Shown here: one piece after another, positions 1 through 13,523 of the stretch
How the letters are laid out: each line of letters starts with the position of its first letter
Numbering within the stretch: the stretch's first letter is position 1
IMG/VR virus record: IMGVR_UViG_3300009709_000002
Location: 96,001 to 160,000 of that record
Source: a virus
Lineage: Duplodnaviria; Heunggongvirae; Uroviricota; Caudoviricetes
Reading direction: 5' to 3' (one strand)
Length of the DNA: 64,000 nt
Notes under the pieces: generated by a model
What the model was told of the DNA's origin: nothing
The model's input: only the letters and a program-made list of their open reading frames with translations
Databases searched by the model: none
Program-made: the position numbers and the translations under genes

Positions 1-186
1 CGTGCTCGAGAAGATGAATCTCACCGTGCGACGTCGGATCATATCCAAGATCGCCGGTGTAGATGTACTCAAACTTACCAGCATCTGCGTAAGCTACGAT
101 CTTCTCATTCAGCACGATCAAAAATTGATCTACTGCGTTAGAAGAAAGCTTAGCTCTATTACGAGCTTCACAGGCAGTGATCATAT

Positions 187-591
187 TTACAGACGTCCTT
201 CACGACGAGCTTCATCCAAAGCAACTTGGATTTTCTTCTGCAACTCCGGGTGCTGAACAGGCATACCCGGATGCTCACGCGTAATATGCTTGATGATCAT
301 GCGTGTGCGCCAGTTCTTGCGAGCTGACAAACCGGTTTTCGACGTGTGCTCCGACTTTTGAGCTTCGGACAACATCACGCGATACTTCTTGTGCTCACGG
401 AGCTGTTCTTCCGTTAAACCGGTTTCCGACATCAGGCGACGAAGCAGCTTTGCTTCCTTACCGCCTGGTGCATGTGGCCCGGAGGGAATGCGCACGAGAC
501 CTTGTGTAACGTAATCGCCTTCTTCAGAATCCCAAACCCAGCCCAGTACACGCTTTTTCTTCATGCAGCGAATTGCGCTCTTGGAAGCCAT
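187..591 (-). CDS. hypothetical protein
   Basis: 134-aa ORF, start overlaps the upstream stop (TAATG). Confidence 0.7.
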   Translation of the reverse strand: MASKSAIRCMKKKRVLGWVWDSEEGDYVTQGLVRIPSGPHAPGGKEAKLLRRLMSETGLTEEQLREHKKYRVMLSEAQKSEHTSKTGLSARKNWRTRMIIKHITREHPGMPVQHPELQKKIQVALDEARREGRL

Positions 592-1046
592 TATGCAGCC
601 TTCTTGATCATCTTGCGAATGCGCTTTGCAACGTCAGCTGCAGTTACGTCTTCACCGTAGCTGTCAGGCATGAACAGCTTTTCAGCTTGTTTTTCAGTCA
701 GGTCGAAGAATGATTCAACAGCTTCCCATTCAGTGAGACCATCATAGTGGGGTACCAGCTTATGCTGGCTCTCACCGGTGACCAACGCAAAACCGAGCTT
801 TTGAAACTCTGGCATCATACCAGCGTGTCCGACTGCGCAAGCAGAGTAGCCGCAATTTGGCTCATTGGCTGCTTTCTTCTTCACTCGGATAGCCGAAACA
901 GCGCCAAGGAGCTTGCCAAAAGTCTTGAACTTGACGAAGTCTTCATGGATGATGCCACGATCACCCCAGTTCGAAAGATCAAAACCGATGGGAGACTTCA
1001 AAGTCTCCAGCTTAGTAGCTAGAAGCAGCAAACGTTCAATGTTCAT
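591..1046 (-). CDS. hypothetical phage protein
   Basis: 151-aa ORF, ACAVGHA motif, phage-like codon usage. Confidence 0.75.
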   Translation of the reverse strand: MNIERLLLLATKLETLKSPIGFDLSNWGDRGIIHEDFVKFKTFGKLLGAVSAIRVKKKAANEPNCGYSACAVGHAGMMPEFQKLGFALVTGESQHKLVPHYDGLTEWEAVESFFDLTEKQAEKLFMPDSYGEDVTAADVAKRIRKMIKKAA

Positions 1047-1066
1047 GTGAATCTCTGTGTTATGTT

Positions 1067-1205
1067 TGGAGAGGAAGGTAGGATTCGAACCATACCATCC
1101 ACGTCTGGCCCTAACTTAAGGCGGTGGCCACCGCTTTCAGCTAGCTGTACAAGTTCGACGTGGACTACGACTTAGCGCCGCTGACCCACCAGGGTCATCT
1201 TCCCC
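1067..1205 (-). ncRNA. 139-nt tRNA-like RNA with degenerate anticodon arm and ~70-nt branched variable arm
   Basis: Acceptor GGGGAAG/CTTCCTC + T-CCA; D hairpin TGACCC-TGGT-GGGTCA; T loop GGTTCGAATCC; inserted helix GTCCACGTC/GACGTGGAT. Confidence 0.75.
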
Positions 1206-1215
1206 ATAGAGGAAA

Positions 1216-1419
1216 CTAAACATCTACTTCTACTGCAACAAACTTGACGAGCCTGAACGTTCGATCAGGGTGCTTCTCACGAAGATCCTTGACCTTAGTC
1301 TTTGCAACTTCTTCGTCGCTAATCTGGAGCAACCCGTCGGGCTTCTCGAGATAGCGACGTTCCCAGCCGCGCTGGTACAAAATCTGGTAAAACGTTTCCG
1401 GCTCGTGCGCTTCAGTCAT
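1216..1419 (-). CDS. hypothetical protein (67 aa, start moved to MTEAHEP)
   Basis: ATG at 1419 overlaps end of the upstream gene; the N-terminal extension in the ORF track overlaps 1412..1609. Confidence 0.6.
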   Translation of the reverse strand: MTEAHEPETFYQILYQRGWERRYLEKPDGLLQISDEEVAKTKVKDLREKHPDRTFRLVKFVAVEVDV

Positions 1420-1609
1420 ATGCGAACATCGATGCTTCGACATCACGCAGGTTGATCTTGTTGCGACGAGCCTGGCGATTCGAGTGCTTCTTGTCAACAG
1501 CGGAAACGTGGCGACGTTCGCCTTCATATGCGCGTTGATCCTTGGCCTTCGGACGACGTTCTTGCTTGCCGAAGGTGCTTTCGAAATCATTCATCGTGAT
1601 GCTTTGCAT
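1412..1609 (-). CDS. small basic protein
   Basis: 65 aa, GGAGA RBS, first gene after promoter 1681-1709. Confidence 0.7.
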   Translation of the reverse strand: MQSITMNDFESTFGKQERRPKAKDQRAYEGERRHVSAVDKKHSNRQARRNKINLRDVEASMFAYD

Positions 1610-1680
1610 TTCTAATCTCCTAGAAGATTGAAAGAAGTTTGAGGTTTTAACGTTTCAGTTGTTTCCCTGACGTTAGAATA

Positions 1681-1709
1681 ATTATAACTCAAACTTTATG
1701 CAAAGTAAA
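1681..1709 (-). promoter_or_regulatory. early sigma70-type promoter
   Basis: TTTACT-N17-TATAAT. Confidence 0.8.
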
Positions 1710-1719
1710 CACTTTTCAA

Positions 1720-2070
1720 TCAATTTGTGCGAAATTCATTTGCTTGAAGTTCGCCACGTAATCCAGCCATGATGCGATTCCGATCTTTATGATCGATAGC
1801 TTCTAGGTGAGCATCAAAGGCATCACGTAGCGGCTCCCAAAGAGGAGAGAAGCCGCGAAAATCGTAGAAGCCACGAAGCAGGCTCAGCGATGCGTACAGA
1901 CCGATCTTCGCCGGTGTTTGTTCAATCGCCCAGTGGAATAGCTCATCAACCGTGCGAAAATCAATGCTGTCATTTGTGACTAGCTCATTGCGGTAGAAAG
2001 CTAGCAGGAAAGAGATTTCCTTGCTATCAGGATTGTTCAGGATGGCTTGTTGAACTTCTTTCAGCTTCAT
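1720..2070 (-). CDS. hypothetical protein
   Basis: ORF with AGGAG RBS right after tRNA-Ile2. Confidence 0.7.
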   Translation of the reverse strand: MKLKEVQQAILNNPDSKEISFLLAFYRNELVTNDSIDFRTVDELFHWAIEQTPAKIGLYASLSLLRGFYDFRGFSPLWEPLRDAFDAHLEAIDHKDRNRIMAGLRGELQANEFRTN

Positions 2071-2083
2071 GATCAACTCCTAG

Positions 2084-2158
2084 TGGTGGGCCGGGAGGGA
2101 GTCGAACCCTCATCAATCGGTTATGAGCCGAACGCTTTTACCGGTAAGCTAACGGCCC
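2084..2158 (-). tRNA. tRNA-Ile2 (anticodon CAT, presumably lysidine-modified, reads AUA); Met not excluded
   Basis: Loop CTCATAA, GGGCC acceptor with C4:G69 and C5:G68 (TilS-type), encoded CCA. Confidence 0.8.
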
Positions 2159-2170
2159 AGCGTTTCAAAA

Positions 2171-2260
2171 TGGCGGAAGGTGTGAGGATCGAACTCACGC
2201 GCCAGTTTCCCAGCGGCTTCGGCTTAGCAGGCCGACCAATTGCCACTCTTGCAACCTTCC
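2171..2260 (-). tRNA. tRNA-Ser(GCT)
   Basis: Loop CTGCTAA, long variable arm, G73, CCA. Confidence 0.92.
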
Positions 2261-2275
2261 ATGTTAAAAATGTTC

Positions 2276-2364
2276 CGGCGGAAGTATACAGAATCGAACT
2301 GTCACCGTATCTCTACAGTGGGCCGGGGTTCAAAGCCGGTTACCGCCCAGCGGTCCATACTTCC
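2276..2364 (-). tRNA. tRNA-Ser(TGA)
   Basis: Loop TTTGAAC, long variable arm, G73; ends CCG rather than CCA; C31.C39 mismatch. Confidence 0.85.
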
Positions 2365-2372
2365 ATTATATA

Positions 2373-2471
2373 CTAAAACGTGAAGTTTGTAATGATGCCC
2401 AGAAAGAAAAGTAAGAAGGCAGCAACTAACACGCCAATCATCCAGTTACTAGCCGGTTTATTCGCAATCAT
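2373..2471 (-). CDS. 32-aa single-TM peptide
   Basis: AGGAG RBS, MIANKPASNWMIGVLVAAFLLFFLGIITNFTF. Confidence 0.5.
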   Translation of the reverse strand: MIANKPASNWMIGVLVAAFLLFFLGIITNFTF

Positions 2472-2481
2472 CAAAATCTCC

Positions 2482-2564
2482 TGGTAGGCGCTACGGGATT
2501 CGAACCCGTAAAAGCACGGGGTTTAAGCCCGTCAGCTGTACCGATTTACATTAGCCAAGCGCCC
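2482..2564 (-). tRNA. tRNA-Leu(TAA), short variable loop, enlarged D arm
   Basis: Loop CTTAAAC, A73, CCA. Confidence 0.85.
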
Positions 2565-2569
2565 AAATA

Positions 2570-2797
2570 CTACTTGTGAATGCTCGGCAGCGTACGAGCA
2601 TAATGCGGCAGATCTTCCTCATACTGGTGATCATTCAACCAGCTAAGGATCATCTCACCAGCTTTTACATCATCTCGTTCATAAAACAGTTCAGGCCAAG
2701 GACCTCTGATGAACATATTGACGAATCGTTGTCCTAGCCGCTGTTGATCACCAGCCGCCTGCTTATGAAGATATACAAACTTTTCGAAAGCTGCCAT
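2570..2797 (-). CDS. hypothetical protein
   Basis: 75 aa from MAAFEKF, start coupled to upstream TAA; contains RLGQRF motif. Confidence 0.65.
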   Translation of the reverse strand: MAAFEKFVYLHKQAAGDQQRLGQRFVNMFIRGPWPELFYERDDVKAGEMILSWLNDHQYEEDLPHYARTLPSIHK

Positions 2798-2967
2798 TAT
2801 TTCGGCTTTCCGCAGCAAGGGCAGAACGGTAGCTCCGGAGTTTCTACTTCAACCGGCAAACCGATCTTGATCGCTTTGTGATGAATCCCTTGATCTGCAG
2901 CAGCGGCGAAGATTTTATCACCACCCCAAGGGAGCTTGTAAAACTGGACCATCACTTTAACTTTCAT
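2797..2967 (-). CDS. 56-aa protein with C-terminal CPCCG
   Basis: Read by hand: MKVKVMVQFYKLPWGG...PFCPCCGKPK. Confidence 0.55.
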   Translation of the reverse strand: MKVKVMVQFYKLPWGGDKIFAAAADQGIHHKAIKIGLPVEVETPELPFCPCCGKPK

Positions 2968-2971
2968 ATGC

Positions 2972-3046
2972 TCACATGAAAATGAGGAAACCGAGAATCA
3001 GCAAGACTACTATGACTACGCCAGCCTGCGTCCACTTATCATCCAT
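2972..3046 (-). CDS. 24-aa single-TM peptide
   Basis: AAGGA RBS, MDDKWTQAGVVIVVLLILGFLIFM. Confidence 0.5.
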   Translation of the reverse strand: MDDKWTQAGVVIVVLLILGFLIFM

Positions 3047-3068
3047 GATGATTCCTTGTAGTTAATCT

Positions 3069-3153
3069 TGGTACCCCCCAATCGGACTCGAACCGATAAA
3101 GGCACTCTTTTTGAGAGAGCTAGCTGTGCCAAATTTGCATTAGCCATGGGGGC
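3069..3153 (-). tRNA. tRNA-Leu(CAA), short variable loop, enlarged D arm
   Basis: Loop CTCAAAA, A73, CCA. Confidence 0.85.
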
Positions 3154-3158
3154 AATGA

Positions 3159-3431
3159 TTACTGCTTGTTTTCGCTGTTCTTACCGATGTGGTAACCGTC
3201 ACAGCGCATGCACTTGTAATTGCTGAAGTACACGCCACGTTTCTTTGCCATCGCTTGTGCTGCTTTCACAGCAGAAGCTTTGGTATTGTACATCACCTTT
3301 GGTTTCCCATTATAGTTCTCATGAGAGCGCTTGTGAACGAGTCCAAAGAGGTGTCCTTTGAAGAGGTTCTTGATCAGCCGTGTAGCTGGTAGCTGATCTT
3401 TAAGCGCGAGAAGAATATTTCGTAACTTCAT
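3159..3431 (-). CDS. small basic protein with YxCxxCxxxH motif
   Basis: Start MKLRNI overlaps upstream stop (ATGA). Confidence 0.65.
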   Translation of the reverse strand: MKLRNILLALKDQLPATRLIKNLFKGHLFGLVHKRSHENYNGKPKVMYNTKASAVKAAQAMAKKRGVYFSNYKCMRCDGYHIGKNSENKQ

Positions 3432-3658
3432 TTCAGAGCATTTAGCATATTGATGCCAACACCAAACGCTGTGCCCATGCACCAATTGTATGAAACCCAC
3501 TCATCAGAATATGGCACGAGCTTCTTGCTTTGAAAGTGTTCCTTCAACGCATACTTGAAATTTTCATCAGCGAGAACTTCACGGATCGAAGCTTTATTCC
3601 ACTTCGTATTCTGAAGACATGCTTGATACGCTTCTTCAATCTTTTCGAGAGTACTCAT
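3428..3658 (-). CDS. hypothetical protein
   Basis: 76 aa, ATGA-coupled. Confidence 0.65.
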   Translation of the reverse strand: MSTLEKIEEAYQACLQNTKWNKASIREVLADENFKYALKEHFQSKKLVPYSDEWVSYNWCMGTAFGVGINMLNALK

Positions 3659-4128
3659 TTGGTTCCTTTCAACTCAGCCAGCTTTTCTTCCAGCTTCTTG
3701 ATCTCATCAGCTACTCGAGCAGCTTCTAATTCAGCCAGCTTCTTCTTAGCTAGCCTTATCAGAGTTGATTCCAAATCTCTTTGGTCAATTAGCCAAGCAG
3801 TTGGAATGCGAATTTCAATTCCCTTCCACTCTTCATAATGATCATACACTGTATAGCTTTCAATGACATCACCGAGATCTATGTCATCATTATGATCCCA
3901 CACTTCACGAGCGTGAGCGACATATTCCGAATTGATCAACGTCACCTTTAGCGTATCTTCCGATTCATGAAATCCAGTGACCTGAATGAGAAATCGGTGA
4001 TTCGGAATAGTGACATCATTGATGCCGTTGCAGTATTTCTTCCAAAGCGTACAGAATATTCTAATGCGCTTTGCAAGAGTTGATGCAGTTCCAAAAGCTA
4101 AAACTATGTCTGATTTAGAGTAGATCAT
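3655..4128 (-). CDS. hypothetical protein
   Basis: 157 aa, C-terminal coiled coil, ATGA-coupled. Confidence 0.7.
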   Translation of the reverse strand: MIYSKSDIVLAFGTASTLAKRIRIFCTLWKKYCNGINDVTIPNHRFLIQVTGFHESEDTLKVTLINSEYVAHAREVWDHNDDIDLGDVIESYTVYDHYEEWKGIEIRIPTAWLIDQRDLESTLIRLAKKKLAELEAARVADEIKKLEEKLAELKGTK

Positions 4129-4766
4129 ATTTGAAAATCAACTTCAAGAAAACTTGGTAAATCATGAATTGAAATTTCATCAATTAAGAACTTGTCCTTT
4201 TCAGATCCAAACATCATCCTAAATTTACTTCCATCATATTCTTTTATGACTTGACCATATTTTCGCTTATTATTATCGCTAAGCCAACCTTTTACTTCAA
4301 TGAATAGATCAAATTCTGGCAAATAAAAATCTGGTGTATAGTGCCGTGTTCTACTATATGGAAGTACTTTTCGTTCAAATTTGATTTGATTTTCAACAAA
4401 TTTGATAGCTACATCTCGCTCCCAAGTGCCTTGAACTTTTACACCATTTACTTCAAACCATTTAACATGAGACTCATTTGCTTCATTGCGCTTAATCGTT
4501 CGTAAAGAATGTTTACGTTTAGCCTCATCAGACCAAAGTTTCGGTGCAGCATTTTTGCTAGCTTCACTAATATCTCTGCGCTTTTTAGCTGCAACTTCGG
4601 CACTAAAAATCTCTTCATATTTCTTCCCTCTAGTGCTCAACGTCTTACCGAGATTGTTATGCACTGGAGGCTTGCCATTACGATGAATGATACACCATCT
4701 ATAATGTGCATTTAACGATTGGGGGTGATCAAATTCACGACCACATTCACAAACGTTATTCTTCAT
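4125..4766 (-). CDS. PD-(D/E)xK endonuclease with N-terminal C2H2-like finger; probable free-standing homing endonuclease
   Basis: YTPDFYLP..FIEVKG motif; CECG..F..SLNAH; markedly AT-rich; inserted in tRNA array. Confidence 0.75.
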   Translation of the reverse strand: MKNNVCECGREFDHPQSLNAHYRWCIIHRNGKPPVHNNLGKTLSTRGKKYEEIFSAEVAAKKRRDISEASKNAAPKLWSDEAKRKHSLRTIKRNEANESHVKWFEVNGVKVQGTWERDVAIKFVENQIKFERKVLPYSRTRHYTPDFYLPEFDLFIEVKGWLSDNNKRKYGQVIKEYDGSKFRMMFGSEKDKFLIDEISIHDLPSFLEVDFQI

Positions 4767-4855
4767 GGTACCCTTAGTCGGATTCGAACCGACAATACAC
4801 TTTCGTGGCTCTCGCTACTCAGGCGAGCGACTTTGCCTAATTTGTCCATAAGGGC
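4766..4855 (-). tRNA. tRNA-Leu(GAG)
   Basis: Loop CTGAGTA (unusual T37), long variable arm, CCA. Confidence 0.88.
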
Positions 4856-4859
4856 AATA

Positions 4860-5066
4860 TCATACTCGTTCTACGTAAAATTCGCCTTTACACACAGCAC
4901 GAGCAGGGTTGGTATCTAAACCGTAAGGATAGTCACGACCGGTGATTTCCTTTCGGAGAGCAATGACGCTTTCATGTACGCAGTATGGCTCGAGGTCCAT
5001 ATCCATGCCGCATGAAACACAACCATTACCACGAAGTCCATGACAGCTTTTATCTTCGTTTGCCAT
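4860..5066 (-). CDS. Cys-rich hypothetical protein
   Basis: 68 aa between two tRNAs, GAGA RBS. Confidence 0.6.
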   Translation of the reverse strand: MANEDKSCHGLRGNGCVSCGMDMDLEPYCVHESVIALRKEITGRDYPYGLDTNPARAVCKGEFYVERV

Positions 5067-5086
5067 GATATTCTCAAAAGTTTAGT

Positions 5087-5172
<86 letters not shown>

Positions 5173-5183
5173 ATTATACTACT

Positions 5184-5268
5184 TGGTGCGGAGAAGGGGA
5201 CTCGAACCCCTACGTCTCTAGGACACAGCGTTCTTAGCGCTGCAAGGCTACCATTACATCACCTCCGC
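5184..5268 (-). tRNA. tRNA-Leu(AAG)
   Basis: Stem CAGCG/CGCTG, loop CTAAGAA, long variable arm, CCA. Confidence 0.88.
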
Positions 5269-5279
5269 AATACAACTTC

Positions 5280-5363
5280 TGGTGGGGAGAGTAGGATTCG
5301 AACCTACGAAGTCGAAACAACGGATTTACAGTCCGCCCCCTTTGGCCGCTCAGGAACCTCCCC
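5280..5363 (-). tRNA. tRNA-Tyr(GTA), canonical
   Basis: Loop CTGTAAA, Tyr-type D loop and variable arm, CCA. Confidence 0.95.
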
Positions 5364-5375
5364 AGGGATTTACTA

Positions 5376-5457
5376 CGGTGGATGCACTAGGAATCGAACC
5401 TAGCTGCCAGAGGCCACGGGTTTACAGTCCGCTAAGTACACCAGTACAATTACATCC
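5376..5457 (-). tRNA. tRNA-Tyr(GTA), atypical
   Basis: Loop CTGTAAA; D arm GTAC-TGGT-GTAC; A31.C39 mismatch; ends CCG. Confidence 0.8.
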
Positions 5458-5486
5458 AAATATTTGCAACGATTACGATAAAAGTA

Positions 5487-5515
5487 ATTCTATCACTAAC
5501 AGTCCATCATGTAAA
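5487..5515 (-). promoter_or_regulatory. early sigma70-type promoter inside the tRNA array
   Basis: TTTACA-N17-TAGAAT. Confidence 0.75.
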
Positions 5516-5528
5516 CTTATTTGCAACT

Positions 5529-5619
5529 TGGTGGAGCACGGACGGAATCGAACCTCATGCCCAGAGGGAAGAGCTTTACAGGCTCCCGATAGCACCAGCC
5601 ATCCTTACTTACGCGCTCC
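5529..5619 (-). tRNA. tRNA-Tyr(GTA), atypical 8/4 fold
   Basis: 8-bp acceptor GGAGCGCG/CGTGCTCC, 6-bp D stem with TGGT loop, loop CTGTAAA, CCA. Confidence 0.72.
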
Positions 5620-5629
5620 ATTTACTTCT

Positions 5630-5708
5630 TGGTCCCCTCAGTGGGAGTCGAACCCACAAAATCTCTCGGTTCTGAGCCGAGCGGCTTTACCAAATTGCCC
5701 ATGAGGGG
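5630..5708 (-). tRNA. tRNA-Leu(CAG), short variable loop
   Basis: Loop CTCAGAA, 7-nt variable region, A73, CCA. Confidence 0.88.
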
Positions 5709-5722
5709 AGAAACAAGTCTTG

Positions 5723-5756
5723 AAAATCAACAGAGGCCTCTAAATAGAGGCCTCTG
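5723..5756 (-). terminator. intrinsic terminator (attenuator 3:4 hairpin) upstream of the first tRNA
   Basis: CAGAGGCCTCT-ATTT-AGAGGCCTCTG followed by TTGATTTT. Confidence 0.8.
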
Positions 5757-5811
5757 CTTTGAAAATCTTGTGTGAACTATATCACATATCGACCTTCAAA
5801 CCGACGCCTCT
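5746..5811 (-). promoter_or_regulatory. antiterminator (2:3) hairpin
   Basis: AGAGGC/GCCTCT, TTTGAAGGTC/GATTTTCAAA and TGTGA/TCACA helices; sequesters the 5' arm of the terminator. Confidence 0.72.
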
Positions 5812-5877
5812 CAATTCGCTATAGAGCGAATAAGATAGCAACGAGCTTGACAGTAAGGATATGTTGAAAGTGTTCAT
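5782..5877 (-). CDS. attenuator leader peptide MNTFNISLLSSSLLSYSLYSELRGVGLKVDM (31 aa)
   Basis: Codons 6-20 are all ATA/Ser/Leu/Tyr; ATG 5 nt after TATAAATA; stop lies inside the antiterminator. Confidence 0.78.
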   Translation of the reverse strand: MNTFNISLLSSSLLSYSLYSELRGVGLKVDM

Positions 5878-5882
5878 GATGT

Positions 5883-5890
5883 TATTTATA
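5883..5890 (-). promoter_or_regulatory. T4-type late promoter
   Basis: TATAAATA; predicted +1 is the A of the leader ATG. Confidence 0.7.
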
Positions 5891-5941
5891 AGAGTGGTGG
5901 AAAACTCATCCAAAATGGTTGGTGTCCAACCGATAGATGAA

Positions 5942-6613
5942 TTATATTCCAACTAGCTCTGAAAGTAAATTACTTTGTGGCATAGTTTTCAACATGCTCT
6001 TTGGGTACATGAAGTGGTAGTACTCTTGCTTGTGTCGCGTGCCATCATCAGCATGGTTAGCGCAATAACCACATCGAATCCAGTCATTGAAGGAACGGCA
6101 TGGAAAGTTTTTCACGTTCAATCCAAGGCCAGTTTTCATCGCATATCGTGCCAAATAATCTGCACGGTTCATCTCAACGAAACGATCATGACCCTTCATG
6201 TATGAGATGCGAGCGTGCTTCAAACAATTTTGAACTTGCCTGAAGATCTTCATGCCATAAAATTCCATGCAAGCTGCCTGGAATGATTGTAACACTCTAT
6301 CTCGATGGGTGAACATGGCATTATCATCATGCATCGCCATATTTGCGTAGGCGATAGGATGAAAATCGGAGTAGAAACTCATATCTTCATACCGAAAACC
6401 ATAGTCGAGACCAAGCAACATACCTTCAATGAAGGCACAATATTCATGGTATCCCATTGATTCTCTATTTGCGGTAGAAAAACCAGAGATCTCTTTTGTT
6501 GTCCCATTAAAGTGGGCCACGATTCCCCAGCCAATACCACGAAGCCGTCCAGATTTTTGACCTAAGATCTTAGCGCCGGCAGATCCATCTACGATGATTT
6601 GAATTTTGCTCAT
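5942..6613 (-). CDS. RNase H-like protein
   Basis: VDGS..GWG..E..YSD..KGH..NRAD pattern of RNase HI. Confidence 0.65.
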   Translation of the reverse strand: MSKIQIIVDGSAGAKILGQKSGRLRGIGWGIVAHFNGTTKEISGFSTANRESMGYHEYCAFIEGMLLGLDYGFRYEDMSFYSDFHPIAYANMAMHDDNAMFTHRDRVLQSFQAACMEFYGMKIFRQVQNCLKHARISYMKGHDRFVEMNRADYLARYAMKTGLGLNVKNFPCRSFNDWIRCGYCANHADDGTRHKQEYYHFMYPKSMLKTMPQSNLLSELVGI

Positions 6614-6683
6614 GATTGTATGTGACCATTTGACATGGTCATTATATCATACAATCATGAGAAAGGAATGTAACTAGAGGTCT

Positions 6684-6950
6684 TTAGAACTCAAACATGG
6701 CCGTTTTATTGGCCAGCTCTTCAAGGACGTGACCGTGACACGCTAAAGGTGCACACCAGCATCCCAGAGTTTTACCACGAAGTGATGCTAATTGAGCTAA
6801 AAGTTCAGGTTGGCCAAGCAACCAGTCACGATATTTGTCAATTACCTCACCTCTTGTACCGTCTTTGTCAATCTCAAATGGGTTACCCCAAATGCTTGGG
6901 CGTCCAATGTAGACGTCATATCTTGCTTTCTTGCAATGAACTACTGCCAT
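6684..6950 (-). CDS. DUF4326 family protein
   Basis: YIGRPS.WGNPF ... LGCWCAP..CHG. Confidence 0.85.
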   Translation of the reverse strand: MAVVHCKKARYDVYIGRPSIWGNPFEIDKDGTRGEVIDKYRDWLLGQPELLAQLASLRGKTLGCWCAPLACHGHVLEELANKTAMFEF

Positions 6951-7034
6951 GTAAACCTCGAAAATAGAGCCCGTTCTATCTGAACGGCATGAAGGGCACT
7001 ACAGCCTCTTTTCTTAGTTTCATCTTTGCTATAC

Positions 7035-7057
7035 AAAAAGCCCCGCTCGAGCGGGGT
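7035..7057 (-). terminator. intrinsic terminator
   Basis: CCCCGC-TCGA-GCGGGG + CTTTTT. Confidence 0.75.
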
Positions 7058-7079
7058 CTTATTGGTCTTACTTCAGCAA

Positions 7080-7307
7080 TTAAGCTGCAGTTGTGGTCGT
7101 CGTTGTTGCTGGTGCTACGACTGGAGCAACTACCGGTGCTACAACTGGAGCTGGCGTAACAACTGCGTCAGCAGCGTTCACAACATCAGTTACTGCCGTC
7201 GTGACAGAAACTTTCTTCGTGAAGAGGCCCTTAGCTGCATTCCAGATAGCAACCCACAGTGGCGAAAATGCTGCGCCAATTGCGATGCCGATGAGAACGT
7301 CTACCAT
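7080..7307 (-). CDS. small membrane protein with APVV repeats and Thr tail, late-expressed
   Basis: N-terminal TM, AAGGAG RBS, CATAAATA at 7357-7364, own terminator. Confidence 0.7.
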   Translation of the reverse strand: MVDVLIGIAIGAAFSPLWVAIWNAAKGLFTKKVSVTTAVTDVVNAADAVVTPAPVVAPVVAPVVAPATTTTTTAA

Positions 7308-7371
7308 GATAACTCCTTAGAACATGAAGCATACAGGATCGTATACCCCATGCATCTATTTATGACTTCTA

Positions 7372-7641
7372 TCACGGTTGAGGCCAAAATGCATCAAGAA
7401 GTGCCCAATCACTAGGACGTTTCCAGTTCAAGATCATCCCGGTGTTGAGATCGATCTCTAGCTCTACATCATCACTACCACCAATACCTAGATCAGATGG
7501 AACGTAGCCTTCAGTTTCCGCGATGATATTTCCATCAGCATCTTTTGCAAACGCGACGAAACGATCATCACAGTGCGCCTGAAACTTCAAGCGCACTATC
7601 TTCTTCATATCAGCTGATTCCTGAGTAGTCAAAGCTTCCAT
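7372..7641 (-). CDS. hypothetical protein
   Basis: 89 aa, GYVP..D..ELEID..TG.I.NW motif. Confidence 0.7.
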   Translation of the reverse strand: MEALTTQESADMKKIVRLKFQAHCDDRFVAFAKDADGNIIAETEGYVPSDLGIGGSDDVELEIDLNTGMILNWKRPSDWALLDAFWPQP

Positions 7642-7643
7642 TC

Positions 7644-8267
7644 TTACTCCGTGTAGTAACGACCTTCGCGCCAGTCTTTGAGGACTCGGCTGTGTTGGTT
7701 GACGATCTTTGAAGCAAGAAATTCCATCTGGTCCGTCTTGATGTTACGGCTCTTCAAGATCATCGCTTCTGCCTTACATGGAACGTATGGAACGTAGAGC
7801 GGATCCATCGTCTTGGTGCCGAACGGGCTGAATAGATTTCCGCTCAACTTTTCGCCAGGCATCAAGTCATCTTTCAAGTTGTTACAGCCCTTGCAAGCCG
7901 TGACAACGTTCGTCCACTTGTCCTTACCACCCTTTGACTGTGGGTGAATGTGGTCACGCGTCAGTTCCGTAGAACGGAACATTCTTCCGCAGTAAGCACA
8001 GACGTTACGGTCACGAGCAAAGAGAGCCTGGTTCGTTAGCGCAGGTTCACGGTAACGACGTGGGTTCGGAGCTCCATCAACCAAAATGATGCTGCTCGTC
8101 TTAAGAGTTGACTGTTCACCATGGTTGTTGTGGCCACCACGGTAGATGAACATGTCTTCGCCAAAATGCTGCGTGACGAGGTTCTTTGCTTCCAAAATCA
8201 TAGCATCCTGGATGCTAATCCACATGTGTGGTTGGAAGTTTGCGTCTAATGTAAGGATCGCGGTCAT
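7644..8267 (-). CDS. HNH endonuclease (McrA-like)
   Basis: RD..CAYCG..T.DHIHP.SKGG...W.N.VTAC..CN..K. Confidence 0.9.
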   Translation of the reverse strand: MTAILTLDANFQPHMWISIQDAMILEAKNLVTQHFGEDMFIYRGGHNNHGEQSTLKTSSIILVDGAPNPRRYREPALTNQALFARDRNVCAYCGRMFRSTELTRDHIHPQSKGGKDKWTNVVTACKGCNNLKDDLMPGEKLSGNLFSPFGTKTMDPLYVPYVPCKAEAMILKSRNIKTDQMEFLASKIVNQHSRVLKDWREGRYYTE

Positions 8268-8335
8268 GCGGGCCTCTCTTTCTCATTATAGTTTTGACCA
8301 CTTTTAGTCAAAATATGGTTGCTGCGACCATATTT

Positions 8336-8364
8336 ATTTTACTACACAACCGCACGCATGTAAA
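8336..8364 (-). promoter_or_regulatory. early promoter
   Basis: TTTACA-N17-TAAAAT. Confidence 0.7.
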
Positions 8365-8366
8365 AT

Positions 8367-8391
8367 AAAAGGCCGCTAATTAGCGGCCTTT
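8367..8391. terminator. terminator hairpin
   Basis: AAAGGCCGCTA-AT-TAGCGGCCTTT. Confidence 0.7.
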
Positions 8392-8411
8392 GCACTGTGA
8401 CGAAGTTTTCG

Positions 8412-9221
8412 TCAGTGTGTTATCTTTGGCCGCACGGCATCGATAATTTCCTGCACCGATGCATCTGTTCCGAGCTTTTCAGCATCCTCATCAGGAATCT
8501 CAAAGCCAAACTCGTCTTCAAGAGCCATGGTGAGCTCGACAGCGTCGAGAGAATCACCGTCATAATCAGAGCACAGTCGATCCGTTAGGTTGACCGCTGC
8601 TCGGCTTACTCCGTACTGCTCGGAGATTACCTGGATGATGCGATTTGCAACCGCATCGGTCGTACACGCCGGTGTAGCCTTCAAAACCTGAACCTTTGCA
8701 ACTTCAGGAATGAAAAATTCACGGCGTTGTTGCTTCGACATTCGCTTCAGCATCGAAAACACCGTCGCTGTGCGAGCTGCCTTGATGCGAACGCTCGAGT
8801 TATTCACTTCCGCGATGTACGTTCCATTGCGGTCATACAGTGAATTCGGGTGCTCGCCAGGCTTGCTGCCAGTACGAACGATCGCGGCGAAGTTGCCGTT
8901 ATCGAAGACGTACACTTTTGGATTGCGAGGAATTCTCACCTTCTTCGACTTTGTCGTAGTCGGATAAGGCGCAGGCTTCACGTTGGTCGGTCCTGTACCA
9001 GTCGGAAACGGCCATGTCGCTCCAACGACTGTCTTTGCAGACAGCGTAACAGTTGCCGGCTTTTTGCCGGCGATCAAGTCTTCAATCTTGTCGAAGGCTT
9101 TAGCGCGCAGTGCTTTCAAGATTTCATCGAAGAGAGCGTGGGTTTTAGCCACGGTCTTCTGCACACCGTTGATGAAAATCTGAAGACCTGCGGAGTCTTC
9201 CATGAAGTAAATAGGCTTCAA
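8412..9221 (-). CDS. protein with C-terminal acyl carrier protein domain
   Basis: DSLDAVELTMALEDEFGFEIPDEDAEKL is an AcpP signature with the phosphopantetheine Ser. Confidence 0.8.
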   Translation of the reverse strand: MKPIYFMEDSAGLQIFINGVQKTVAKTHALFDEILKALRAKAFDKIEDLIAGKKPATVTLSAKTVVGATWPFPTGTGPTNVKPAPYPTTTKSKKVRIPRNPKVYVFDNGNFAAIVRTGSKPGEHPNSLYDRNGTYIAEVNNSSVRIKAARTATVFSMLKRMSKQQRREFFIPEVAKVQVLKATPACTTDAVANRIIQVISEQYGVSRAAVNLTDRLCSDYDGDSLDAVELTMALEDEFGFEIPDEDAEKLGTDASVQEIIDAVRPKITH

Positions 9222-9979: not shown

Positions 9980-10744
9980 CTATATGCTTTTCAAGACTTG
10001 AACCAGGCGATCTTTATGTGCTTCCCAGTCCAATTTTATTGCTTTTTGCTTAGCCCAGTCTGTGTGCCAAACCACGCCATTAAGAAACTGGCGATTTCCT
10101 TCTGCCCACTCCGTCATCGTGTACGTTGCGTTCCGCTGCAGCTCTACCTCTGTCTTCAAGCCGAGATACGACTTGATCAGCTTGCTTTCAGAGCCTTCAT
10201 AGGCCTGCATCAGGTCAGCGTCACGAATGATCTTTTCAACGTGATCAACAGGGCCGCGAACGTATGGATATTGCGTTACATCAACCACGCGCTCTGTAAC
10301 CTTGTATTCCCAGTCACTGATAGCTTCATCAGTGTACTTGCACATATTTATGACAGCCGCGAGAAATTCCTTCGCTCGACGTACGTTCTCCGCATCGTCG
10401 AAATTACCGCCGGTGTGCTTGGCATCATGGCAGATACCGCCGAGAACGAGCGGGCGCCAGTACTCAGACGGAATGTCTTCGAACACCGCACCTTCGAAGA
10501 CGTTAGCGACGAGGCACTCGGTGTGGTAGAGGTTGTGGTACGGTAGGTTGGCCGATGGGTTGAACTGTTTGAACAGCGCCCATGGGATTTCCAACTTCAG
10601 CTTGTGAACGATCAAATCCGCCGCGAGGTTGAAGTTCATAAGCGTCAACTCGTCCAGATGATCATTGAACATGTCAGCTGACGCTTCACGAGCCGAGCTG
10701 TTTGGAAAATGCATCCGGAATTTTTCATTACCCATGATATTCAC
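9980..10744 (-). CDS. HD-domain phosphohydrolase (PDEase-like)
   Basis: PYHNLYH ... CHD ... IRDAD. Confidence 0.8.
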   Translation of the reverse strand: MNIMGNEKFRMHFPNSSAREASADMFNDHLDELTLMNFNLAADLIVHKLKLEIPWALFKQFNPSANLPYHNLYHTECLVANVFEGAVFEDIPSEYWRPLVLGGICHDAKHTGGNFDDAENVRRAKEFLAAVINMCKYTDEAISDWEYKVTERVVDVTQYPYVRGPVDHVEKIIRDADLMQAYEGSESKLIKSYLGLKTEVELQRNATYTMTEWAEGNRQFLNGVVWHTDWAKQKAIKLDWEAHKDRLVQVLKSI

Positions 10745-12812: not shown

Positions 12813-13469
12813 GTGCTAACAAATCTTTTAAAGCGTTCGAAGTTCAAGTTTGGCAAGAACGCAAAAGCAACTGAGGAAAAGCTGGTTGAAACTGCAAAGA
12901 ATTTGCTGGGTCAACGTGATGAGATTGAAAAACAACTCATCGAAGCCGACAAGCTCAATGATGAACTGTCTTGTGTCGTTAAAGAGACACAAGACATTTC
13001 TAATGAGCTAATTTACAAACTTGATCACGAGCTTAGCTTAGCCAAGCGACAGCTCGACTCCGTCTCTAAATCACTAGCCGATGGGTTGATCTTCTTAGAC
13101 CACCTCGGTAGAATCCTACACTTCAACCAAGCTGCTGAAGCTATGCTAGGCGTGCTCGCCGGAGATGTGCTAGGGGAGAACGTTATCAATCTTTTCAGTC
13201 CGTTGAACGCTTCACTTGACAATAAAACTCTTCCTGAAGCTGCAATCGCTCGCTGCTCAAGACGCATTTTCAGCAAGCTCAAAGCCGGTGAATCAATTGA
13301 TGGAGAAAATGTAGGCAATGTCACTCGTCTTGGAAAGAGTTCAATCATCGAGACCCAAACACCAAACGGTCCACACAAGTTCAACTTGACGTTGAACATA
13401 CTTGAACCAAATCCAAGAAAGTCGACTGACGTAAGTTACGTCTGCATCTTCAAGCCTCTGTTCGCTTAA
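12813..13469 (+). CDS. coiled-coil plus PAS domain protein
   Basis: DGLIFLD..GRI..FNQAAE.MLG....DVLG PAS signature; AAGGAG RBS. Confidence 0.8.
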   Translation: MLTNLLKRSKFKFGKNAKATEEKLVETAKNLLGQRDEIEKQLIEADKLNDELSCVVKETQDISNELIYKLDHELSLAKRQLDSVSKSLADGLIFLDHLGRILHFNQAAEAMLGVLAGDVLGENVINLFSPLNASLDNKTLPEAAIARCSRRIFSKLKAGESIDGENVGNVTRLGKSSIIETQTPNGPHKFNLTLNILEPNPRKSTDVSYVCIFKPLFA

Positions 13470-13523
13470 AGATGGCCAAAAGAAAGGGAGACTAGGCTCC
13501 CTTGTTCTTATCTCTGACGAGAT

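Follow-up and report, generated by a model that had tools for sequence, protein, structure and literature searches.

Leader-peptide attenuators are represented by trpL, hisL, leuL and pheL and by the multivalent thrL and ilvL, and the class also takes in pheA and pheST. The outputs of all described ribosome-mediated attenuators known to us are amino-acid biosynthesis or aminoacyl-tRNA synthetase genes. Here we describe an element on the minus strand of a 64,000-nucleotide stretch of viral DNA (the window; positions 96,001-160,000 of the IMG/VR record IMGVR_UViG_3300009709_000002, a 360,227-bp genome with direct terminal repeats), in which a short open reading frame (ORF) and a set of alternative hairpins stand directly ahead of an array of tRNA genes. 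The genome is that of a jumbo phage from soil. The sequence of this element leads us to consider it likely, with some margin for doubt, to be a ribosome-mediated (leader-peptide) transcription attenuator with a tRNA array, and not protein-coding genes, under its control. A second unit of this kind is present in the same genome, and three more in a cultured phage, Tunturi_5. The first-pass annotation of the window, made from the letters alone, knew of no described attenuator with a tRNA array as its output; a literature search likewise found no leader peptide or attenuator before tRNA genes or phage tRNA arrays.

The closest described systems are the leader-peptide attenuators of biosynthesis operons (see also PMC1183508, PMC3082878), with which the phage units share a short ORF carrying regulatory codons, mutually exclusive 1:2, 2:3 (antiterminator) and 3:4 (terminator) hairpins, and a terminator more stable than the antiterminator, with control being kinetic. 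The sampling of more than one amino-acid family also has its counterpart in thrL and ilvL. The phage units differ from these known attenuators in four features: they have a tRNA array rather than enzymes as their output, their leaders sample four to twelve families at once, matched to the array, instead of repeating a single codon, their stop codons are placed within the antiterminator hairpin, and the element is encoded by a phage. Since the product is tRNA, it would act directly on the sensed step, decoding, so that the feedback loop would run on tRNA instead of on the amino acid. The tRNA output is the point of novelty; a biosynthesis or synthetase output is no part of the definition of the mechanism.

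Other comparisons are more distant. The pheM leader of the pheST operon, which encodes phenylalanyl-tRNA synthetase, is a ribosome-mediated attenuator that senses Phe only. Like the phage units, it places an attenuator over a component of translation that sets the supply of charged tRNA, but it covers a single family, has a protein enzyme as its output and is not found in a phage. An attenuator-like leader at E. coli pheV was also considered and dropped, because in the K-12 sequence the tRNA-Phe gene is immediately preceded by a promoter, with neither a leader ORF nor an attenuator. T-box riboswitches resemble the phage units in setting read-through by competition between a terminator and an antiterminator, according to the status of tRNA; however, they bind one uncharged tRNA without a ribosome, and their targets are genes for synthetases, biosynthesis and transporters. 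An Rfam scan of window positions 1-9000 (E <= 1) gave no match to the T-box covariance model and no family at 5720-5900, the only matches being tRNA-like. Finally, leaderless poly-Cys short ORFs are attenuators in mycobacteria (bioRxiv 10.1101/834739). These start at or near the 5' end of the transcript and have no Shine-Dalgarno sequence, an arrangement implied here by the spacing of 5 nt between a TATAAATA motif and the ATG, but they are host-encoded, sense Cys alone and have protein-coding operons as their output.

The leader ORF of the window (leader 1) comprises 31 codons and a TGA (5877-5782, minus strand), with its ATG at 5877 and its stop at 5784-5782. Upstream of the ATG the frame remains open as far as a TTG at 5952, an extension that the relatives do not conserve. 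Re-reading the minus strand returned what the first-pass annotation had described, namely TATAAATA at 5890-5883, 5 nt, and then the ORF, in which codons 6-20 (5862-5818) form a control region of 15 consecutive Ile-ATA, Ser, Leu and Tyr codons with 12 distinct triplets, codon for codon as listed there. Codons of this set have a per-codon frequency of 0.24 when all frames are counted and of 0.19 in long ORFs, and no other such run in the six frames of the 360,227-bp genome reaches 15 codons, the runner-up being a 12-codon poly-Ser stretch. The whole ORF lies in a long imperfect hairpin (segments 1:2; 5876-5773, minus; about -38 kcal/mol), in which the start-codon region pairs just past the stop and the control region makes up the 5' arm and apex (segment 1). 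With segment 1 blocked and segment 4 absent, RNAfold returned an alternative antiterminator hairpin of -32.0 kcal/mol (segments 2:3; 5811-5746, minus), formed by the ORF 3' end and the terminator 5' arm, with the stop codon in the apical helix. The third structure (segments 3:4; 5758-5723, minus) is an intrinsic terminator-like hairpin of 13 bp, GC-rich and of -23.7 kcal/mol, followed by TTGATTTTC and ending 14 nt ahead of tRNA-Leu(CAG), the first gene of the array (5630-5708, minus, starting at 5708). The full leader fold, with 1:2 and 3:4 together, has -61.6 to -62.8 kcal/mol (RNAfold) and a z of -7.65 against dinucleotide shuffles, with an equally good fold in 0 of 200. All three hairpins had been noted in the first-pass annotation and were recovered by folding, which also placed the control codons in the 5' arm of 1:2, and the predicted alternatives have the topology of the trp attenuator. 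The locus thus contains a leader ORF, cognate regulatory codons, a GC-rich hairpin with a U-run, an exclusive antiterminator and a 1:2 hairpin holding the control codons; the genes downstream are tRNAs in place of biosynthesis or aminoacyl-tRNA synthetase genes.

The same layout recurs in a second unit outside the window (G000:C1 354678-354417, minus; L011:7418-7679), which stands ahead of a large tRNA array running from Glu to Val. The order here is the extended promoter motif also found ahead of leader 1, an ORF, a stop codon in the antiterminator, a GC-rich terminator, a TTGATTT tail as in the first unit and then tRNA-Glu. Its ORF (leader 2, P0153; 44 codons; G000:C1 354635-354501, minus) has an AAAGGA Shine-Dalgarno sequence, and its stop codon is in the apical loop of a hairpin, the base of which uses the GC-rich terminator's 5' arm as its pairing partner. 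The 31 codons after the start include all 12 of the families of the array, with 28 of the 31 residues being members, and this window is the most extreme for coverage and membership among the 232,169 stop-free 31-residue windows of the genome. The terminators of the two units are the two strongest hairpins genome-wide with TTGATTT behind them. The two leaders also differ in their Ile codon, with ATA in leader 1 and ATT in leader 2, whose array carries tRNA-Ile(GAT).

A cultured relative in layout is the Tunturiibacter phage Tunturi_5 (PP885688), a jumbo phage of 309 kb from Arctic soil that infects Tunturiibacter psychrotolerans (PMC11924767), which was reached through one tRNA, the only match in the cultured-phage collection. 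It has three tRNA arrays, each behind a short ORF and a hairpin with a T-run. The leader of its class-II array has 32 codons (L021:3481-3579, unit 3481-3640) with a 15-codon run of Leu, Ser, Tyr and Cys that includes two Cys and no ATA. The second leader (L022:872-1036, unit 872-1100) and the third (L022:13274-13423, unit 13274-13490) likewise match their own arrays. The terminator 5' arm has an antiterminator alternative of -25 to -32 kcal/mol in all three. The paper describing the phage lists the tRNAs and mentions no leaders (PMC11924767), and in GenBank two of the three ORFs are unannotated and the other is the hypothetical protein gp308.

Across the five units, the families of the unit's own array are fully represented in the leader (3/3, 12/12, 4/4, 8/8 and 9/9), the whole ORF is enriched for them (P = 2e-5, 4e-3, 8e-5, 0.04 and 1e-5), and the true pairing of leaders to arrays outscores all permutations in both genomes. 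The differences between the phages follow the same rule. The class-II array of Tunturi_5 includes tRNA-Cys and its leader has Cys, the array of the window includes a tRNA with a CAT anticodon and its leader has ATA, and neither pair is found in the unit of the other phage; unlike in our phage genome, the remaining amino acids are split over two arrays in Tunturi_5, and its two leaders are split likewise. From one phage to the other, the content of the leader follows the tRNA set, a comparison that the first-pass annotation had suggested for related phages. Every unit also has a GC-rich hairpin and T-run with a competing antiterminator on the terminator 5' arm, and in every unit the stop codon lies 20-29 nt from the terminator arm. 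The complementarity between the ORF 3' end and the terminator 5' arm, scored against dinucleotide shuffles, gave P = 0.01, 0.006, 0.18, 0.03 and 0.09.

These regularities bear on a quite different account of the locus, in which it would be a structured non-coding RNA (a 5' leader or a self-terminated small RNA) or the plain terminator of the upstream gene, with the ORF and its codons as by-products that ribosomes never read. The great stability of the fold (z = -7.65) and the lack of a Shine-Dalgarno sequence before leader 1 would fit such an RNA, a 31-codon open frame is not rare by chance, and leader 2 has a core free of nucleotide changes, as RNA structure predicts. Structure alone, however, does not explain why the leaders match their own arrays with full coverage in five of five units, nor why each of the two leaders in this genome is the genome-wide extreme for its matching statistic, and the fixed placement of the stop 20-29 nt ahead of the terminator arm in five units also speaks against it. 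Together with the keeping of the frame in relatives described below, this makes a non-coding RNA a quite improbable explanation.

Relatives of leader 1 are the syntenic metagenomic contigs L004 and L005/L006, reached through the upstream RNase H-like protein P0001, and those of leader 2 are L013-L016 and L019, assemblies in which the leader 2 peptide is called as a gene. The flanks of L005 are about 95% identical to the window, and it therefore carries little information. L004 is 83% identical in the leader against 71-79% (about 77%) in the flanks; an idea that leader 1 is hyper-conserved was dropped on these numbers, L005 being simply a close relative. Leader 2 is 91-94% identical to its relatives, as against 75-80% in flanking genes, and its structural core is invariant. 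In the relatives of both leaders, the three indels within the ORFs are all 3 nt long, whereas those outside are of 1, 3 and 4 nt. In L004, leader 1 has gained an in-frame 3-nt insertion, and its control-region changes are synonymous or stay inside the Leu/Ser set. Taking both leaders together, control-region changes are synonymous or exchange one array family for another (Pro to Asn, Pro to Gln, Gln to Asn, Ser to Thr, a gained Pro, Leu to Ser and a gained Leu), which is the pattern expected if membership in the codon set, and not the peptide sequence, is what is selected. It is consequently hard to see the ORFs as small, independently functional proteins of 31-54 residues that by chance lie upstream of arrays, each with an ordinary terminator. 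Gene callers do report the 44-residue ORF in several assemblies, and one of the Tunturi_5 ORFs is annotated as gp308, but the peptides have no family matches or relatives outside the close set, their residues swap freely inside the array families (the Pro-to-Asn, Pro-to-Gln, Gln-to-Asn and Ser-to-Thr changes) with no conservation of peptide sequence, and their composition is wholly different between units and yet fits the respective array each time. We regard this explanation as highly improbable.

The hairpins, too, are maintained in the relatives. Four linked alignment columns (39:78:128:150) read G-C-G-C in the window, G-C-G-T in L005 and A-T-A-T in L004, and between the window and L004 the chain stays complementary in 1:2, 2:3 and 3:4, the 78:128 pair of 2:3 changing from C-G to T-A and the 39:78 pair of 1:2 in a compensatory manner. 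One stem pair of the terminator is G-C, G-U or A-U across the relatives. This compensatory chain ties 2:3 to 3:4, which is a hallmark of a terminator/antiterminator switch. The antiterminator of L004 is kept at -27.2 kcal/mol by a shift of pairing register despite a 4-nt deletion and at least 12 changes, and in L015 compensatory changes preserve the hairpin that encloses the leader 2 stop codon. The covariation that the first-pass annotation had called for is thus present, with linked changes in all three hairpins and the frame kept by in-frame indels. More generally, its attribution of the layout to a ribosome-mediated attenuator is supported by the recurrence in five units, the matching of leaders to arrays, the folds and the compensatory changes.

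Several searches for further relatives came back empty. Exact-pattern scans of IMG/VR with motifs from the terminator, the tRNA and both leaders found nothing, a search for related loci with the upstream protein and then with its alignment gave no loci, and tblastn of cultured phages with the leader 2 peptide yielded no match above noise. The distant RNase H-like homologues L009, L010, L017 and L018 lie in unrelated contexts with no tRNA arrays, L008 stops short of the leader, and L007, a single metagenome match, was ruled out as a chance 21-mer.

Transcription into the locus would start at either of two sites on the minus strand. The nearer is a phage-type motif, TTTTCCACC-5 nt-TATAAATA (5904-5883). 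The genome has 21 copies of the TATAAATA element, and 18 of these are on the gene-rich strand (genes of this phage are mostly on the minus strand); shuffled sequence leads one to expect about 3. Directly downstream of 7 of the 21 copies lies a tRNA gene, one of the two leader ORFs or, at 10106, hairpins preceding a tRNA array; the element therefore behaves as a phage promoter element. Its extended form, TTTTCCAYC-5 nt-TATAAATA, occurs three times in the genome, each time with a tRNA array downstream. At other sites the motif lies about 12 nt from mature tRNA 5' ends, and with only 5 nt between motif and ATG here, the 5' untranslated region of the leader mRNA would be close to absent. The farther site is an early-type, sigma-70-like promoter, TTTACT-17 nt-TATAAT (5969-5941), inside the end of the upstream RNase H-like gene and conserved in L004, L005 and L008. 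It is followed by a small hairpin at the 5' end of the early transcript, GGTTGG-ACA-CCAACC (5931-5917). As a side observation, this module of promoter and hairpin (TATAAT, then ATCTATCGGTT..AACC and the short 5'-end hairpin; 5941-5917, minus) is kept in L004, L005 and L008 and recurs elsewhere in the genome, at G000:C1 about 5417-5390 and about 332780-332750.

Farther downstream, an internal promoter-like site is indeed present at 5515-5487 (minus), within the tRNA-Tyr stretch, where the first-pass annotation had placed an independent supply for the distal tRNAs. A promoter scan of the locus found no promoter-like site from the terminator to tRNA-Leu(CAG) or the first tRNA-Tyr. Expression of these two genes would therefore need read-through. 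This speaks against a plain terminator of the upstream gene, which would silence the promoterless first tRNAs.

The layout suggests the following sequence of events. Two upstream promoters would give a transcript that opens with the 31-codon ORF and its Leu, Ser, Tyr and Ile-ATA control codons. When these are decoded quickly, the ribosome would melt segment 2 and halt at the stop codon inside the antiterminator, the terminator would form and transcription would end. A stall at any control codon would leave segment 2 free to capture the 5' arm of the terminator, and the polymerase would enter the tRNA genes. Were the ORF left untranslated, the 1:2 hairpin would form first, and the terminator would form as well. 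More tRNA would then probably be made only when decoding of the leader codons is slow. The circuit would be one of negative feedback, because the tRNA products would relieve the stall, and it would adjust the phage tRNA supply to decoding demand. The ORF is probably translated, as the 3-nt indels and the control-region changes confined to array families suggest indirectly; that transcription ends at the hairpin and that stalling raises read-through is inferred.

A number of points weigh against the proposed attenuator and need to be considered alongside it. Leader 1 has no Shine-Dalgarno sequence, and its start would need a near-absent 5' untranslated region or initiation on an AU-rich leader; a Shine-Dalgarno 4-mer is found in about 36% of the long ORFs of this phage, and the absence fits a near-absent 5' untranslated region given the 5 nt between TATAAATA and the ATG. 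The terminator tail, TTGATTTTC, is not an unbroken U-tract. In equilibrium folding, the 2:3 hairpin already has the lowest energy while segment 4 is yet to be transcribed, even with no ribosome, and a ribosome footprint at the stop codon leaves the base of the antiterminator uncovered. The fold check suggested in the first-pass annotation, with ribosome positions blocked, accordingly gave the alternative hairpins but did not separate the states, so that the switch must be kinetic or steric; in the trp leader, too, the terminator is the more stable hairpin and control is kinetic. An RNA polymerase that uses TATAAATA would have to obey intrinsic terminators and couple to ribosomes. In the second unit, the 1:2 hairpin does not overlap segment 2, and that unit thus only partly shares the feature of a competing 1:2 hairpin. 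Comparative depth is small, leader 1 having one informative diverged relative (L004), and the windows used for the statistics were picked after the data had been seen. The diversity of codons given the peptide is not significant (P = 0.10 for leader 1, with a second value of 0.43); the first-pass reading that the leader samples individual isoacceptors is therefore statistically unsupported, as the number of distinct codons does not exceed what the codon usage of the phage provides, and the match between leader and array is at the level of amino-acid families. Finally, no such leaders were found in the tRNA-rich jumbo phage XacN1 (60 tRNA matches, with arrays duplicated in the terminal repeats), and the feature is thus not universal among tRNA-rich phages.

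Some of these points could be read in favor of a related account, in which the leader ORFs do sense the decoding of array-cognate codons but act at another step, be it Rho-dependent termination, processing by RNase E, III or P, or the stability of the tRNA precursor, with the hairpin and T-tract serving as a processing or stability element. The interrupted U-tract and the insensitivity of the equilibrium model to ribosome position both agree with it, and the TTGATTT common to both units of this genome could mark a processing site. What makes it unlikely is that a GC-rich hairpin and T-run with a competing antiterminator on the terminator 5' arm is found in five of five units, and that the compensatory chain couples 2:3 with 3:4.

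Codon compensation by phage tRNA genes has been discussed for decades, and to our knowledge the control of their expression is essentially unknown. If the attenuator reading is true, phage tRNA supply would be regulated by demand, with direct feedback from the speed of decoding, the grouping of tRNA genes into arrays would be functional, with one sensor per array, and classical attenuation could be multiplexed over up to 12 amino-acid families. The leaders would also be natural, compact reporters of family-specific decoding capacity. More recently, phage tRNAs have been viewed as substitutes for tRNAs destroyed by host defences (e.g. PMC10264068, PMC11464382). A wider proposal, which we advance tentatively and hold to be rather doubtful, is that in a clade of soil jumbo phages each major tRNA array stands behind its own multiplexed codon-sensing attenuator, so that the phage would gauge decoding family by family and switch on the array it needs, the leaders being inducible counter-measures to tRNA loss through host shut-off or turnover, anticodon nucleases or tRNA-targeting toxins. 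Host anticodon nucleases as the trigger are speculation. As both Tunturi_5 and its host are cultured (PMC11924767), the idea is directly testable.

The tRNA genes of the source genome fall into groups, and ARAGORN finds 51 over the whole genome, with a few more found through Rfam and a relaxed scan. The class-II group (Leu, Ser, Tyr and the CAT-anticodon tRNA) occupies genome positions 91-102 kb, with its head inside the window. A large group at 348-354 kb holds Glu, Phe, His, Gln, Lys, Asn, Ile, Asp, Trp, Pro, Thr and Val, and a smaller one at 7-10 kb holds Ala, Pro, Arg and Gly. In the window, all on the minus strand, tRNA-Leu(CAG) is followed by three tRNA-Tyr(GTA) genes within 5280-5619 (about 5614-5534, 5458-5379 and 5363-5280), tRNA-Leu(AAG) at 5268-5184, tRNA-Leu(TAG) at 5172-5087 and, after a 68-codon ORF, tRNA-Leu(GAG) at 4855-4766; the distal part consists of tRNA-Leu(TAA) (2564-2485), tRNA-Ser(TGA) (2364-2277), tRNA-Ser(GCT) (2260-2171) and the CAT-anticodon tRNA (2158-2084). 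Compared with the first-pass annotation, the count in the window is 11 and not 12, and tRNA-Leu(CAA) was not found; its assignment of the CAT-anticodon gene to Ile2 is plausible and unproven, Met being the other option; and its remark that tRNA-Ser(GGA) is missing holds for the window, such a gene lying on the same strand about 7 kb farther downstream. Default ARAGORN missed three of the genes, tRNA-Leu(TAA) (2485-2564) and two tRNA-Tyr(GTA) (5379-5458 and 5534-5614), the latter two having unusual arms and scoring higher with the Rfam Sec model. Two further tRNAs outside the window, one with a CTA anticodon (amber-suppressor type, labelled Pyl by ARAGORN) and one with an ATT anticodon, are found at G000:C1 277432-277506 and 351574-351647. 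Two suppressor tRNAs are annotated in XacN1 as well. In that phage (L024, AP018399, 29000-50000), a conserved CACACTAAATA-like motif, probably a promoter, precedes tRNA genes, and small ORFs are interleaved with them; array-matched leaders or attenuators were not seen in this region.

A third candidate unit in the source genome was rejected. At G000:C1 about 10106-9850, a 51-codon ORF rich in Gly, Ala, Val and Ile does not fit the Ala, Pro, Arg and Gly array, and a clear terminator is lacking. The surrounding region (about 10126-9652, minus) carries the third copy of TTTTCCAYC-5 nt-TATAAATA and two strong hairpins, and the ORF, which is hydrophobic and may encode a small membrane peptide, ends directly before a tRNA-like sequence with an apparent insertion, which is followed by the Ala, Pro, Arg and Gly tRNAs.

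The locus upstream of leader 1 is mosaic. The RNase H-like gene (5942-6613, minus) is 42% identical to its counterpart in L005 (10001-10962), whereas the flanks are about 95% identical at the nucleotide level; L008:263-1127 was also compared. In L005/L006 and L008, an extra small gene (of 96 and 61 codons, respectively) separates the early promoter from the leader. Genes for TROVE (Ro60-like), bactofilin and cpYpsA-domain proteins lie upstream of the leader in L004 (1083-2699) and L005 (1491-3113), at a distance of a few kb, and a gene of the poly(A)-polymerase/CCA-adding family lies close to leader 2 in L015. This content suggests a neighbourhood of RNA repair and tRNA maintenance genes.

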